A stretch of 39,603 nt of DNA. Source: a virus. Lineage: Duplodnaviria; Heunggongvirae; Uroviricota; Caudoviricetes. The stretch covers positions 1-39,603 of IMG/VR virus record IMGVR_UViG_2778261067_000006; one strand, written 5' to 3'. This document shows positions 16,332 to 21,000 of this stretch, piece by piece; position 1 is the stretch's first letter, and each line of letters opens with the position of its first letter. A model generated the notes under the pieces. That model was not told the origin of the DNA. It did no database searches and worked only from the letters and a program-made list of their open reading frames with translations. Position numbers and translations under genes: made by a program.

Positions 16332-16516
16332 ACGCCACAATTCAAACGATACCAGAGCTTCTTATCCAGACACGAGGCAATCAGACCGAAGTGGCGAGGA
16401 TGCTTTCCTGCGCAAGAGGAACGGTGCTCAAGTACAACCGAGACAGCAAAGGCGAACGTCACGTAATAGTTAACGGCGTCCTGATGGTCAAACAGGGCAA
16501 GAGGGGAAGACGATGA
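16328..16516 (+). CDS. ninH: NinH
   Basis: ...GNQTEVARMLSCARGTVLKY...IVNGVLMV... parallels lambda NinH. Confidence 0.65.
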   Translation: MNATIQTIPELLIQTRGNQTEVARMLSCARGTVLKYNRDSKGERHVIVNGVLMVKQGKRGRR

Positions 16517-17136
16517 GACTCGAAAGCGTAGCTAAATTTCATTCGCCAAAAAGCCCAATGATGAGCGACTCACCACGGGCCACGGCTTCTGACTCTCTTT
16601 CCGGTACTGATGTGATGGCTGCTATGGGGATGGCGCAATCACAAGCCGGATTCGGAATGGCTGCATTCTGCGGTAAGCATGAACTCAGCCAGAACGACAA
16701 ACAAAAGGCTATCAACTATCTGATGCAATTTGCACACAAGGTATCGGGGAAATACCGTGGCGTGGCAAAGCTTGAAGGAAATACTAAGGCAAAGGTACTG
16801 CAAGTGCTCGCAACATTCGCTTATGCGGATTATTGCCGTAGTGCCGCGACGCCGGGAGCAAGGTGCAGAGATTGCCACGGTACAGGCCGTGCGGTTGATA
16901 TATCAAAAACAGAGCTGTGGGGGAGAGTTGTTGAGAAAGAATGCGGAAGATGCAAAGGTGTCGGCTATTCAAGAATGCCAGCAAGCGCCGCATATCGCGC
17001 TGTAACGATGCTAATCCCAAACCTTACCCAACCCACCTGGTCACGCACTGTTAAGCCGCTGTATGACGCTCTGGTGGTGCAATGCCACAAAGAAGAGTCA
17101 ATCGCAGACAGCATTTTGAATACGGTCACACGTTAG
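16513..17136 (+). CDS. Q: Late antiterminator Q (lambda type)
   Basis: 207 aa, MRLESVAKFHSPKSPMMSDSPRATASDSLSG...; essentially the lambda Q sequence as I recall it. Confidence 0.9.
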   Translation: MRLESVAKFHSPKSPMMSDSPRATASDSLSGTDVMAAMGMAQSQAGFGMAAFCGKHELSQNDKQKAINYLMQFAHKVSGKYRGVAKLEGNTKAKVLQVLATFAYADYCRSAATPGARCRDCHGTGRAVDISKTELWGRVVEKECGRCKGVGYSRMPASAAYRAVTMLIPNLTQPTWSRTVKPLYDALVVQCHKEESIADSILNTVTR

Positions 17137-17178
17137 CAGCATGATTGCCACGGATAGCAACATATTAACGGCATAATA

Positions 17179-17207
17179 TTGACTTTTTGAATAAAGTTGG
17201 GTAAATT
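17179..17207 (+). promoter_or_regulatory. Late promoter PR' (-35 TTGACT, 17-nt spacer, -10 TAAATT) with adjacent qut region
   Basis: Near-identical to the lambda PR' region as I recall it. Confidence 0.6.
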
Positions 17208-17242
17208 TGACTCAACGATGGATAAATGCACTCGTTAAATAA

Positions 17243-17276
17243 AGCCCTGAGTTAATAGCTCGGGGCTTTTTGCGTT
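17243..17276 (+). terminator. tR' terminator (end of the short 6S-like late leader)
   Basis: AGCCCTGAG-(loop)-CTCGGGGCT followed by TTTTTG, about 30 nt downstream of the PR' start region. Confidence 0.6.
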
Positions 17277-17571
17277 TTAAGCACGGCCTTTCTGAAAGCA
17301 CATCAAACCAAATACCAGACAGACAAAAATAACCACCTTATCCGCTGTGGCTACGGTGCGGTGTGCTTTGCATAAAAGAAAACCAGCTCAATGGCTGGCT
17401 TCGTGAAAGCGGGTGGCAAGAAGTTGCGCTAACAACCTCCTGCCGTTTTGCCCGTGCATATCGGTCACGAACAAATCTGATTACTAAACACAGTAGCCTG
17501 GATTTGTTCTATCAGTAATCGACCTTATTCCTAATTAAATAGAGCAAATCCCCTCAATGAAGGGGTAGAGC

Positions 17572-18250: not shown

Positions 18251-18684
18251 GCAGAGTAACCGCGATTATCTCCGCTCTGGTTATCTGCATCATCGTCTGC
18301 CTGTTATGGGCTGTTAATCATTACCGTGATAACGCCATCGCCTACAAAGAACAGCGCGATAAGGCCGCATCCATCATCGCTGACATGCAGAAGCGTCAAC
18401 GTGATGTAGCAGAACTCGACGCCAGATACACAAAGGAGCTTGCTGATGCTAACGCGACTATCGAAAGTCTCCGTGCTGATGTTTCTGCTGGGCGTAAGCG
18501 CCTGCAAGTCGCCGCCACCTGTGCAAAGTCAACGACCGGAGCCAGCAGCATGGGCGATGGAGAAAGCCCAAGACTTACAGCAGATGCTGAACTCAATTAT
18601 TACCGTCTCAGAAGTGGAATCGACAGGATAACCGCGCAGGTTAACTACCTGCAGGAGTACATCAGGACTCAGTGCCTGAAATAA
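18247..18684 (+). CDS. Rz: Rz (i-spanin)
   Basis: N-terminal TM segment followed by a coiled coil; ATGA overlap with endolysin stop. Confidence 0.75.
18440..18631 (+). CDS. Rz1: Rz1 (o-spanin lipoprotein) embedded in the +1 frame of Rz
   Basis: Lipobox ...LLGVSAC followed by a proline-rich mature region; fully nested in Rz. Confidence 0.6.
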
Positions 18685-18715
18685 TTTTTTTGCAAATCAC
18701 AAAGTCCATTTAATG

Positions 18716-18770
18716 AGCCTCGCGATGCGGGGCTTTTTGCAATAAATGCGTACCGCAACGCATGTTTTTT
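18716..18770 (+). terminator. Tandem intrinsic terminators after the lysis cassette
   Basis: AGCCTCGC-GAT-GCGGGGCT + TTTTT, then ATGCG-(loop)-CGCAT + GTTTTTT. Confidence 0.5.
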
Positions 18771-18885
18771 ACACCGAACCTGCCCATTTGGAATGGGCCT
18801 TTGAGGATACCAGTTAGTGCTGGCGAGCCTCGGTGGGCTGGTTTCCTATGCGGCAAAGGTTCATTTCAAATGGTAGGTAAACGTT

Positions 18886-19407
18886 ATGAATATCGTGCCA
18901 CTTAATTACAAAGGTGAAATTGTCAGTTTCAACACTGATGGTTGGATCAACGTCACAGGTGTTGCTGAGAGATTTGGGAAACGCATTGATAACTGGATGC
19001 GTTTGGCAGAAACGCTTGAATACGTTCGTGCTTTAGACGAAGCGTTGACCGGGAAAGAATCTCAAATTTTACATCCCTCACAATCGAGGTATGTAAAAAC
19101 CAGCAAGGCACGAAAGGACAGGGGTGGTGGTACGTGGCTACATCCAAAACTTTCAGTTGCATTTGCCCGTTGGTGTGATGCTCGTTTTGCTGTGTGGTGC
19201 GACCTGCACATTGATAGTCTGCTTCGCGGTGAACTGACTGAGCAGCAGAAATATGAGCAAGCATGTCGCATTCGCGATGACCGGAAATCAAAAGCCAGCA
19301 ATGGGGCAAGAGAGATGGCTCGCTGGCGATGGAATAAGCCGGTTATTGAAGCAAATGTTGAGTACTGGCGCGAGCAACTGCAGTTGACTCTCGATATCGC
19401 GTGCTGA
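18886..19407 (+). CDS. KilA-N domain protein
   Basis: 173 aa; N-terminal ...FNTDGWINVTGVAERFGKRIDNWMRL... typical of KilA-N/APSES-like DNA-binding domains. Confidence 0.6.
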   Translation: MNIVPLNYKGEIVSFNTDGWINVTGVAERFGKRIDNWMRLAETLEYVRALDEALTGKESQILHPSQSRYVKTSKARKDRGGGTWLHPKLSVAFARWCDARFAVWCDLHIDSLLRGELTEQQKYEQACRIRDDRKSKASNGAREMARWRWNKPVIEANVEYWREQLQLTLDIAC

Positions 19408-19765
19408 TGGCAAACGCAAAACTGCGTTATCGGAAAAATCAAAGCATTACGAGAACTGAGCAACGGCTATCCATTACAAAGCCCATCTACGGGTGGGCTT
19501 GATAATGAAACCGGAGTTAATTTCTGGTCACTAATTAACGGCAGTACAGCGAAACAACCCAAGCCAGAAAGTGGGGAAATAACACTGTCAGCCACTGAAA
19601 GATGAACCTCCTGCCTTATGGCAAAAAAGATTCTTTGTGGTGGCGGACTGATGGAAAGACATCGGTTATTGCAGAGACCACTCATTGAATGGTCTCTACA
19701 ATGGCTTATACCCTACACGGGATAACTTAACTGATATCCCTTTTAACGGATAAACGGAGCCAACA

Positions 19766-20008
19766 ATGGCAGAGATTATTCCCATGACTGAAGAACAGAA
19801 ATTCCAGTTAGAGATTTACAAGCTGGTCATGAACCAGAACGCAGCCGCAGAGGAAGCGTTTCAATTCATTGGCACTGACGAGCTGAAGCTTGAGCTATTC
19901 AAAATTCACTTCCAGTCAGGTGGCGCTAATTCAGATATCACGATCCGCACATTCGAAGCGGTGCGTAAATCGAAGGAAGCGTTAGACCTGTTCACTACCG
20001 GAGTGTAA
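19766..20008 (+). CDS. Hypothetical protein (80 aa)
   Basis: First of three tightly packed small ORFs upstream of the terminase genes; SD GGAG. Confidence 0.4.
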   Translation: MAEIIPMTEEQKFQLEIYKLVMNQNAAAEEAFQFIGTDELKLELFKIHFQSGGANSDITIRTFEAVRKSKEALDLFTTGV

Positions 20009-20011
20009 GAG

Positions 20012-20299
20012 ATGACTGAACAAGAAATGCCGAGATACCAGTGCCACAAAAAAGTTCGCGCCCTGAAGATTGGCTCTATAGAACATAAGCCAAACCCAGA
20101 TCAGTCTGGTAAGACTGGCTCTTCTAGTTATGGGGCAATTATTCATCCGGATGATAAGAAATACGCAGCATTTGATGTTAGCGCGGAATATATCTGTAAG
20201 CACCGACCAATGTCTGGAGGCTATTACGTTGTCTATGAGGATGGATATGAATCATATTCTCCTGCTGAGGTATTTGAGTCTGGATATTCAAAATTATAG
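20012..20299 (+). CDS. Hypothetical protein (95 aa)
   Basis: 3-nt spacing from the upstream ORF; no family recognised. Confidence 0.4.
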   Translation: MTEQEMPRYQCHKKVRALKIGSIEHKPNPDQSGKTGSSSYGAIIHPDDKKYAAFDVSAEYICKHRPMSGGYYVVYEDGYESYSPAEVFESGYSKL

Positions 20300-20308
20300 G
20301 AATCCTCT

Positions 20309-20487
20309 ATGACAAACGTCGTTGATCTTGGTAATGAGAAGAAATTCCCAATTACTCAAGAGCTATACGAGCGGCTGGAAAGCGTCATCCATGATTACGA
20401 TGGTGAAATCAGTTTATGCGAGGCGATTGGTACACTCGAATTGCTGAAGCAGTCACTGATTGAAGGCGCGAAAGAGTCCTCAGCCTG
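20309..20487 (+). CDS. Hypothetical protein (59 aa)
   Basis: Hand-translated MTNVVDLGNEKKFPITQELYERLESVIHDYDGEISLCEAIGTLELLKQSLIEGAKESSA; below ORF-track cutoff. Confidence 0.35.
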
Positions 20488-20505
20488 AAATAACAACTAA
20501 GTGAG

Positions 20506-21000
20506 ATGAATATGGCAGCACCAAAGGGCAACCGATTTTGGGAGGCCCGCAGTAGTCATGGGCGAAACCCTAAATTCGAATCGCCTGAGGCGCTGTGGGC
20601 TGCTTGTTGTGAATACTTCGAGTGGGTAGAAGCTAACCCGCTATGGGAGATGAAGGCGTTCTCGTATCAGGGTGAAGTGATACAAGAGCCTATCGCCAAG
20701 ATGCGAGCGATGACTATTACAGGCCTCACTCTGTTCATTGATGTGACGCTTGAAACATGGCGCACATATCGCCTGCGAGAAGATTTATCTGAAGTCGTTA
20801 CGCGAGCAGAGCAGGTCATCTACGACCAGAAATTCTCTGGCGCAGCCGCTGACCTTCTCAACGCTAACATCATCGCCCGTGATTTGGGCCTCAAAGAGCA
20901 GTCGCAAGTTGAAGACGTGACACCTGATAAGGGAGATCGCGATAAGCGACGCTCTCGTATCAAGGAGCTATTCAACCGTGGAACTGGACGCGATTCTTGA
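20506..21000 (+). CDS. Terminase small subunit
   Basis: 164 aa, immediately upstream of and overlapping the large terminase; N-terminus [18 protein letters not shown] recalled as a small-terminase family. Confidence 0.65.

Follow-up and report, generated by a model that had tools for sequence, protein, structure and literature searches.

The 39,603 nucleotides (nt) of the IMG/VR virus record IMGVR_UViG_2778261067_000006, here called the window (the whole stretch of DNA that was analysed), belong to a temperate P22-like phage of the Lederbergvirus type. Positions 18,716 to 20,487, between the lysis cassette and the packaging genes, contain a KilA-N gene, a gap of 358 base pairs (bp) and three small genes encoding 80, 95 and 59 amino acids (aa), namely orf80, orf95 and orf59. 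This stretch is probably an exchangeable accessory segment of the P22-like late operon. Comparison with related loci shows that the junction is a mosaic of independently swappable modules within a conserved non-coding frame, in the order invariant terminator, structured leader with the KilA-N gene, empty-site spacer, DUF2560 gene (orf80), orf95 insertion and orf59c (orf59 in the window). Most of the locus is ordinary P22-like mosaicism, and taken together its parts make a new combination at a type of site already known. The rare insertion orf95 is, judging from its protein family, a candidate counter-defence protein, a serious possibility that falls somewhat short of an even chance.

Mosaic structure of the junction

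The late region of P22 and BTP1 (NC_002371, NC_042346) reads gene 15 (Rz), rha, orf25/pid, orf80, orf59c and gene 3. It shares with the window the terminator T1, the leader, a first-slot gene, the conserved spacer with hairpin 2, orf80, orf59c and the small terminase gp3. In contrast to P22 and BTP1, the window has the KilA-N gene instead of rha, lacks the 630-bp pid moron and carries orf95 between orf80 and orf59c. Similar DNA is present in 223 of the 50,697 phage records searched, none of which covers 80% or more of the stretch. Pieces of it are found in 2,836 of 5,426 complete Escherichia coli genomes, and the full arrangement in only two. In one of these two the array precedes a different terminase type, which is the layout of the E. 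coli prophage in NZ_CM142668 (whole array from KilA-N through gap, orf80 and orf95 to orf59 at 98.1%, other terminase type downstream); the array is therefore not bound to one packaging system. The Escherichia phage CurroJimenez_Bas106 (PQ850599) has orf95 and orf59 at 99.7% DNA identity to the window, but it is without orf80 and the spacer and carries a Rha-like gene.

The slot between orf80 and gene 3 was compared across the 37 loci in which an orf80-like gene and gene 3 are both present. It is empty in 16 loci and holds orf59 in eight, orf95 with orf59 in five, Dec (the decoration protein of phage L) in four, Orf129 with Dec in three, and Orf129 in one. Because these patterns of presence and absence are independent, orf80, orf95 and orf59 are independent passengers and not one operon unit, so the three-gene micro-operon proposed in a preliminary description of this DNA does not hold as a unit. 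More generally, orf95, orf59, pid and the plus-strand cassettes described below all vary among otherwise collinear relatives, as expected of morons. In phage L, dec lies at exactly the same place, immediately upstream of gene 3. The Orf129 protein that precedes it (locus L129, 163-552) has no Pfam match and shows a HECAH motif reminiscent of the zinc-protease motif HExxH.

The gap and its two empty insertion sites

The gap (19408-19765, plus strand) is exactly 358 bp long, non-coding and highly structured. The preliminary description correctly saw no convincing open reading frame (ORF) here, yet the DNA is not anonymous, being a conserved spacer that is matched in 209 phage records at 80-99% identity, including HK022, HK620, epsilon34 and, in part, Shiga toxin (Stx) phages. 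Window positions 19528-19724 are the DNA that directly follows rha in P22. The gap has no match in PHROG, in Rfam (E up to 1) or in a transfer RNA (tRNA) scan. As RNA (313 nt), its fold has a z-score against shuffled sequences of -5.9 for the plus strand and -6.2 for the minus strand.

A 37-nt block at 19627-19663 (plus strand) is invariant, and its 3' end (19663/19664) is the point at which plus-strand cassettes are inserted in relatives. An exact-match scan of viral contigs with this 37-mer collected at least 120 contigs, and the cassette comparison comprises 128 related loci. Immediately after the block, 56 of the 128 resemble the window. The others carry cassettes with a Gp49/Sf6-gp66 gene (PF13876, E 1.9e-34), with DUF551, or with ORFs of 23, 61 or 80 aa, and in one locus two cassettes are stacked. 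PF13876 is the Acb4 family of cyclic-nucleotide sponges acting against the cyclic-oligonucleotide-based antiphage signalling system (CBASS). A second site lies at 19725-19751 (no strand assigned), where blastn against P22 and BTP1 shows 27 bp in place of about 630 bp. The P22/BTP1 insert is the minus-strand pid moron according to the BTP1 pid annotation, and PMC8835761 reports the mapped positions of its promoter, its terminator and its transcription start (P22 nt 40,880). Since the 27 bp stand in place of that insert, the window shows an empty pid site. The gap is thus the empty state of two insertion sites, one for pid and one for plus-strand cassettes. As the same frame holds different cassettes across relatives, the junction is a real accessory hot spot of which the window shows the empty state. 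The preliminary description had called the lysis-terminase junction a moron site, and this stands as regards the hot spot in the 128 loci; the self-sufficient expression of a moron does not, as no plus-strand sigma-70-like promoter was found.

The smallest cassette is a 23-aa ORF (MSAEGFNNPSKFRDEWDSSVKSK) with a strong GAAGGAG ribosome-binding site, seen in phage Emek (locus L003, 1600-1670) and about 12 other loci; it differs from orf53, which the Emek annotation places there. Two cassette-bearing loci, L076 (Acb4-family cassette) and L069 (80-aa ORF cassette), also carry orf95 and orf59, so that one junction can accommodate several accessory genes at once. The BTP1 antisense RNA STnc6030, considered as an occupant of this junction, was rejected, as it is located at the tailspike.

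Conserved stem-loops in the gap

The 8-bp stem AGAGACCA/TGGTCTCT of the preliminary description exists, 2 nt to the right of the position 19671-19695 given there. It is the core (19673-19680 and 19690-19697) of a larger, 43-nt structure on the plus strand, hairpin 2 (19664-19706), whose outer stem pairs 19664-19671 with 19699-19706 and which has two further pairs and an AUU loop. The hairpin extends to about 18 bp, and its 17-nt arms are 88% complementary. By chance, about 0.05 perfect 8-bp inverted repeats with a loop of at most 12 nt are expected per 358 bp, which is weak evidence when taken alone. Among 22 distinct variants from the 128 loci, 96.6% of the cells pair, versus 31-52% in controls in which the partner was slid by one to three columns. 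Both partners are changed in four pairs, and several other pairs have G.U as an intermediate. The pairing is kept in three allele classes (empty-site, P22-type and cassette-type), and the cassette-bearing alleles have another sequence with the same shape (CAAAGCCA...TGGCTTTG). The wobbles of hairpin 2 can pair in RNA of the plus strand, which has the sense of the late transcript, but not in that of the minus strand.

Two further stem-loops flank this structure on the plus strand. Hairpin 1 (19472-19507; AAGCCCAUC...GGUGGGCUU) resembles the cassette-end hairpin in sequence, and its HK022 and Emek variants likewise give U.G wobbles that are paired in plus-strand RNA only. Hairpin 3, a predicted fold at 19719-19745 (GGGAUA...UAUCCC followed by UUUU), is weakly terminator-like and lies upstream of the orf80 ribosome-binding site; its segment is missing in loci of the L017 type. 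An E. coli prophage (locus L133, 3660-3700) has lost 196 bp (window 19507-19702) between the GATAATG-type flanks of hairpins 1 and 2. This deletion removes the 37-nt block together with hairpin 2 and joins the 3' flank of hairpin 1 to the flank of hairpin 2. Another locus, L112, carries a hybrid hairpin in which a left arm of the cassette type faces a right arm of the empty type and several pairs are broken; recombination in the sequence that both alleles share near the loop seems to have produced it. Since the deletion and the hybrid both occur there, the hairpin flanks probably act as recombination joints. These shared flanks would serve the gain and loss of cassettes.

Hairpins processed by ribonuclease III (RNase III), or stabilising the message, lie between genes of long phage transcripts, as in the R sites of T7 and lambda sib. 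Hairpin 2 resembles these in its intergenic position, its imperfect stem, which has about 18 pairs and is interrupted by an internal loop, its lack of a U tract and its compensatory changes, and the likeness is one of functional analogy, not of membership. It is shorter than typical RNase III sites of about 20-22 bp, and it is dispensable in one natural prophage. Hairpin 2 and the KilA-N leader are possible RNase III sites, at which cleavage is a prediction. Because they lack a U tract, the cassette-end stem-loops are read as processing or stability elements, which would act in the plus-strand late messenger RNA (mRNA).

The three small genes before gene 3

The sizes of the three genes and the 3- and 9-nt spacers between them were given correctly in the preliminary description, whereas two of the three that it did not recognise, orf80 and orf59c, are long-annotated P22 genes. 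orf80 (19766-20008, plus strand) encodes a DUF2560 protein (PF10834, E 2.6e-42; 143.3 bits against a cut-off of 25) and corresponds to P22 orf80, with 96% DNA identity, and to hkbM of HK620. The Listeria gene called orf80 (TerI-80) has only the name in common with it and was rejected as a relative. orf59 (20309-20488, plus strand) corresponds to P22 orf59c and HK620 hkbN (PHROG 3546, E 1e-40), and its family is narrow, with 63 clusters, all from Enterobacterales and at least 69% identical. Searches of orf80 and orf59 against PDB sequences gave nothing meaningful, and the four proteins of the segment gave nothing against NCBIfam. None of the papers searched discusses P22 orf80, orf59c or DUF2560. 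orf80 and orf59 would thus be small late accessory proteins without an assignable activity.

The small terminase gene (20512-21000, plus strand; Pfam GP3_package, E 3.6e-33) follows orf59 closely. The distance had been described as 18 nt, which is near the mark; it is 17 nt to the first ATG (20506) and 23 nt to the P22-type start (20512), and the latter has the better ribosome-binding-site spacing.

orf95 (20012-20299, plus strand) is an insertion between orf80 and orf59c, because window positions 20004-20329 replace 27 bp of P22. Its DNA is present in only two phage records, Bas106 (99.7%) and Dewey (69%). A TAG stop and a 9-nt linker of three codons (20297-20308, plus strand) separate orf95 from orf59 in the same reading frame. 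Natural replacement of TAG by GAG or CAG gives 158-aa fusions (P0001, P0002 and P0006), confirmed on an NCBI assembly (locus L133, 4001-4477). The window retains the TAG, as do Bas106 and five viral contigs, the six related loci that were checked. An orf95-type domain with a small domain behind it is a common arrangement, which this layout mirrors. The occurrence of orf59 on its own in P22 and the narrowness of its family speak against a strict partnership. No similarity was found between orf59 and the C-terminal extension of the protein P0054, and the AlphaFold model of the natural fusion is poor (predicted local distance difference test, pLDDT, 60.8; predicted template modelling score, pTM, 0.38) and uninformative on domain packing.

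The orf95 family, immune-signal sponges and Dec

The orf95 protein has 444 close homologues, all unnamed, and belongs to no Pfam family. A profile search of 1.84 billion cluster representatives (50% clustering) found at least 5,173 representatives of its family at E <= 1e-3. The AlphaFold model (pLDDT 81.7) shows a small beta-barrel with two short helices and ends at the helix that follows the OB-fold. Residues Y9, K13, Y71, Y75 and Y79 are invariant, and H12, K63 and H64 nearly so. Two proteins that resemble orf95 are the RyR Tad protein gp68 of Pectobacterium phage CB1 and the decoration protein Dec of phage L. The family profile matches the N-terminal domain of RyR Tad in hhalign (95%, E 3.9e-8), and the two share the motifs YQ(C/S)HK.VWA and GGY.VVY...Y.S.SP..F..G. 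The gp68 domain differs from orf95 in lacking the middle third, in being fused to a ligand-binding RyR-like domain and in forming a domain-swapped dimer (bioRxiv 10.64898/2026.06.04.730250). P0185, a protein of 4,188 aa, has 28 separate stretches that match positions 67-91 of the orf95 profile, its C-terminal motif, and the GGYYVVY-DGY-like unit therefore also exists as a tandem repeat.

The multi-domain relatives of orf95 number 75. Their fusion partners are Sequestin (PF21825) in eight, Acb4 (PF13876) in four, Tad2-like domains (PF11195) in three, the Acb2/Tad1 hairpin (PF24729) in two and DUF551 in two, and four different other domains occur once each. A recognised sponge partner from one of four families is thus present in 17 of the 75. 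Sequestin was itself discovered through its fusion to known sponges, and fusions of the same kind are found in the orf95 family. Acb4, Sequestin, Tad2 and Acb2/Tad1, as well as the proteins of the anti-signalling hot spot of N4-like phages, are short phage proteins in accessory hot spots, as is orf95, and the Acb4-family cassettes of relatives occupy a neighbouring site of the same junction. orf95 may accordingly represent, as a single-domain protein, a very large phage domain family whose members adjoin or are fused to nucleotide-signal sponges, and most likely it would help to evade host signalling immunity by ligand binding or oligomer formation.

By profile, the orf95 domain is distinct from these four sponge families. 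Searches of orf95 and 86 homologues against PF13876, PF11195, PF21825 and PF24729 gave no hit within the orf95 domain. Membership in DUF2829/Tad2, suspected from the motifs, has no Pfam support, and a relationship to TadIV-1 was rejected as that protein is helical and confined to T4-like phages. The family is unlikely to be Lockin, which is reported to be absent from INPHARED, where orf95 homologues are present; no chain of LockinA (PDB 9P8L) appeared in the orf95 fold searches.

Dec (PDB 6E3C; AY795968) is the only PDB hit of orf95 in Foldseek at E <= 1e-3 (4e-4), and the orf95 profile matches the Dec sequence in hhalign with 91.6% probability (E 8e-7). orf95 corresponds as a homologue to the N-terminal OB-fold domain of Dec, residues 10-89. 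The trimeric spike of Dec (residues 99-134) is absent from orf95, and the capsid-contact residues K30, Y31, Y49, Y71 and E73 align with E24, H25, D55, D77 and Y79 of orf95 and are not conserved. In contrast to Dec, the orf95 family extends across unrelated phages and includes fusions to sponge domains, and its members in lytic phages lie among early small non-structural genes. Judged from these sequence features (no spike, contact residues not conserved, early-region homologues in lytic phages), orf95 is not a Dec orthologue.

Terminators, leader and the KilA-N gene

Upstream of the junction are NinH, a Q-type antiterminator gene (16513-17136; Pfam Antiterm, E 1.2e-57), the holin and lysozyme genes and Rz with an embedded Rz1, the 3' end of Rz being at 18684. 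Downstream, gp3 is followed by the large terminase, portal, scaffold and a P22-type coat protein. About 430 bp between the antiterminator and holin genes (17137-17571) hold short ORFs only, the longest of 51 aa, and are presumably the late promoter and qut region. At the equivalent place Bas106 has tRNA genes, whereas the window has none.

The tandem terminators followed by a KilA-N gene were located as described earlier. T1 (18715-18738, plus strand), directly after Rz/Rz1, folds as GAGCCUCGC-GAU-GCGGGGCUU with a 9-bp stem, a 3-nt loop and a subsequent U run, and the equivalent in Emek is annotated as a rho-independent terminator. The terminator-like hairpin T2 (18746-18770, plus strand) reads ATGCGT-ACCGCA-ACGCAT followed by GTTTTTT. 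Its T run is confined to the lineage of the window and Emek, and P22 retains the stem without the T run. Both elements have the GC-rich stem and U tract of intrinsic terminators, and termination at them is predicted. The stem and T run of T1 are invariant in P22, E212, HK620, Dewey, Bas106 and Emek, whichever gene comes next. The suggested insulation of the KilA-N gene is therefore generic rather than specific to it, even though both terminators are present.

The KilA-N gene (18886-19407, plus strand) occupies the slot of P22 rha and encodes 173 aa with a KilA-N domain (Pfam E 7.6e-22; PHROG 129) that scores 77.6 bits against PF04383, above the gathering cut-off of 23.8. The C-terminal part is Rha/ORF11CD3-like (PHROG 518), and the protein is 99% identical to Emek orf173. 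It has a weak PADLOC match to the candidate defence family PDC-S22 (E 1.1e-5, residues 12-103), which probably reflects the shared KilA-N domain only. The gene is preceded by a structured 5' leader (18784-18873, plus strand), a long imperfect stem whose end adjoins the ribosome-binding site. Its inverted repeat has 20-nt arms with 85% complementarity (fold z = -4.2), and in RNAalifold on six phages eight of the 20 pairs are kept through changes on both sides. The stem with its compensatory changes is also conserved before other first-slot genes, namely Rha-like, KilA-like hkbK and HNH genes.

Expression of the segment

A consensus scan of 18400-20700 found no sigma-70-like promoter on the plus strand, weak or non-sigma-70 promoters being outside its reach, and one such site on the minus strand, versus 3.1 expected by chance. 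This site (20187-20216; CAGACA, 18-nt spacer, TATATT) lies inside orf95 and has no evident minus-strand gene downstream. No terminator was found between the three small genes or after orf59. As no plus-strand sigma-70-like promoter was found, the three genes are regarded as late-operon passengers and not as classic, self-expressed morons. Antiterminated late transcription is established for lambdoid late operons (summarised in PMC2629481). All genes of the segment are in late-operon orientation and no promoter of their own was found, which makes expression by late read-through most likely: polymerase modified by the Q-type antiterminator would read through T1 and T2 into the accessory genes, and in the prophage T1 and T2 may keep these genes silent.

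Discussion

Four other explanations compete with that of an exchangeable accessory segment whose hairpins would act in the late mRNA. One holds that the three small genes form a self-contained moron, a toxin, defence or exclusion operon that is insulated by terminators and expressed from a promoter of its own within the gap. In support of it, the content of the hot spot varies, the genes lie close together and the GC content dips modestly to 0.40-0.44 across 20000-20500 (orf95 and orf59) as compared to about 0.50 in the lysis and terminase genes. However, the scan described above found no plus-strand promoter-like site, the presence of each gene is independent of the other two, orf80 and orf59c are common among P22-like phages that lack orf95, and PADLOC gave no significant hit for any of the three proteins apart from a weak JetB match of orf59 (E 0.013). 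Such an operon is therefore very unlikely. The contrary possibility, that all three are core genes of known function in P22-like phages, is not borne out either, as none of them is universal or of known function. A small protein or an independent small RNA made from the gap is less likely still. ORFs of 28 aa (19603-19689) and 35 aa (19618-19725) on the plus strand and of 72 aa on the minus strand (19467-19685) do exist, two gap ORFs are annotated in Dewey and the structural z-score is strong. Against this, the start of the 28-aa ORF is lost in HK022 and that of the 35-aa ORF in locus L019, where the 28-aa ORF also has a premature stop; Emek has a +1 insertion, and indels of 1 and 2 nt separate relatives. 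With these lesions the gap ORFs were rejected as coding, and the absence of PHROG hits and of Rfam matches at E <= 1 points the same way.

The hairpin could also be an element at the DNA level, such as a palindromic protein-binding or recombination site, or a feature of minus-strand RNA. Hairpin 2 lies exactly at the cassette boundaries, the hybrid allele and the deletion end at its flanks, and the minus strand folds equally well. On the other hand, the loop varies from 3-9 to 6-12 nt across alleles, a variation seldom seen in binding sites of dimers, the most frequent alleles contain G.T and T.G positions that are paired in plus-strand RNA only, and the scan found no minus-strand promoter nearby. 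This explanation is improbable, but it keeps a small share of the weight. Finally, orf95, possibly with orf59, could be a capsid decoration protein like Dec whose OB-fold binds and stabilises the mature head. In its favour, Dec is the top and only significant match among solved structures, dec occupies the same slot, Dec and orf95 never occur together in the 37 loci, and homologues in two Pseudomonas phages are annotated as decoration proteins. The P22-type coat protein of the window has D81-P82 where P22 has E81-P82, but the same coat type is found with and without orf95, which makes a link between the two uninformative. In addition, Dec residues 1-98, without the spike, cannot bind virions, the contact residues are replaced in orf95, and the relatives of orf95 lie in non-structural regions or are fused to sponge domains. 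A decoration function has accordingly little probability, and about half of the weight goes to some role of orf95 other than decoration or counter-defence.

Several observations weigh against the reading of the locus preferred here, that of a swappable late segment with conserved mRNA stem-loops and a counter-defence candidate. The covariation of the hairpin derives from only three or four allele lineages, and thus from few independent events, and hairpin 2 and the conserved block are dispensable, since the natural prophage L133 is without both. The expression and function proposed for the genes of this phage are predictions from sequence, and the promoter scan is restricted to sigma-70 consensus sites. 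The N-terminal domain of RyR Tad alone is inactive against type I Thoeris (bioRxiv 10.64898/2026.06.04.730250). A signal sponge would not be expected to be made so late, though Acb4-family genes lie in the same late region, and with sponge partners in only 17 of the 75 multi-domain relatives the domain could be a mere oligomerisation module. The fuller proposal, in which orf95 would be a free-standing member of a new large counter-defence family (a sponge or a sponge-assembly module), orf59 its in-frame partner and Dec an offshoot that gained a spike and a capsid-binding surface, is doubtful at present, with a probability somewhat below that of the counter-defence role itself.

For P22-like phages, the locus gives a view of the pid site and the Acb4-cassette site in their unoccupied state, and the conserved stem-loops offer a handle on the processing of very long late phage mRNAs and on cassette exchange at the junction. 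orf95 represents more than 5,000 sequence clusters without a Pfam model, whose relatives are fused to four validated sponge families, and a domain of the same type makes up the N-terminal part of RyR Tad, which had lacked an explanation. orf95 is also the only detectable relative of the OB-fold of Dec, described as novel, and thereby suggests an origin for a capsid decoration protein. orf95 is the part of the locus worth following, a concrete and cheap candidate for phage-defence laboratories.

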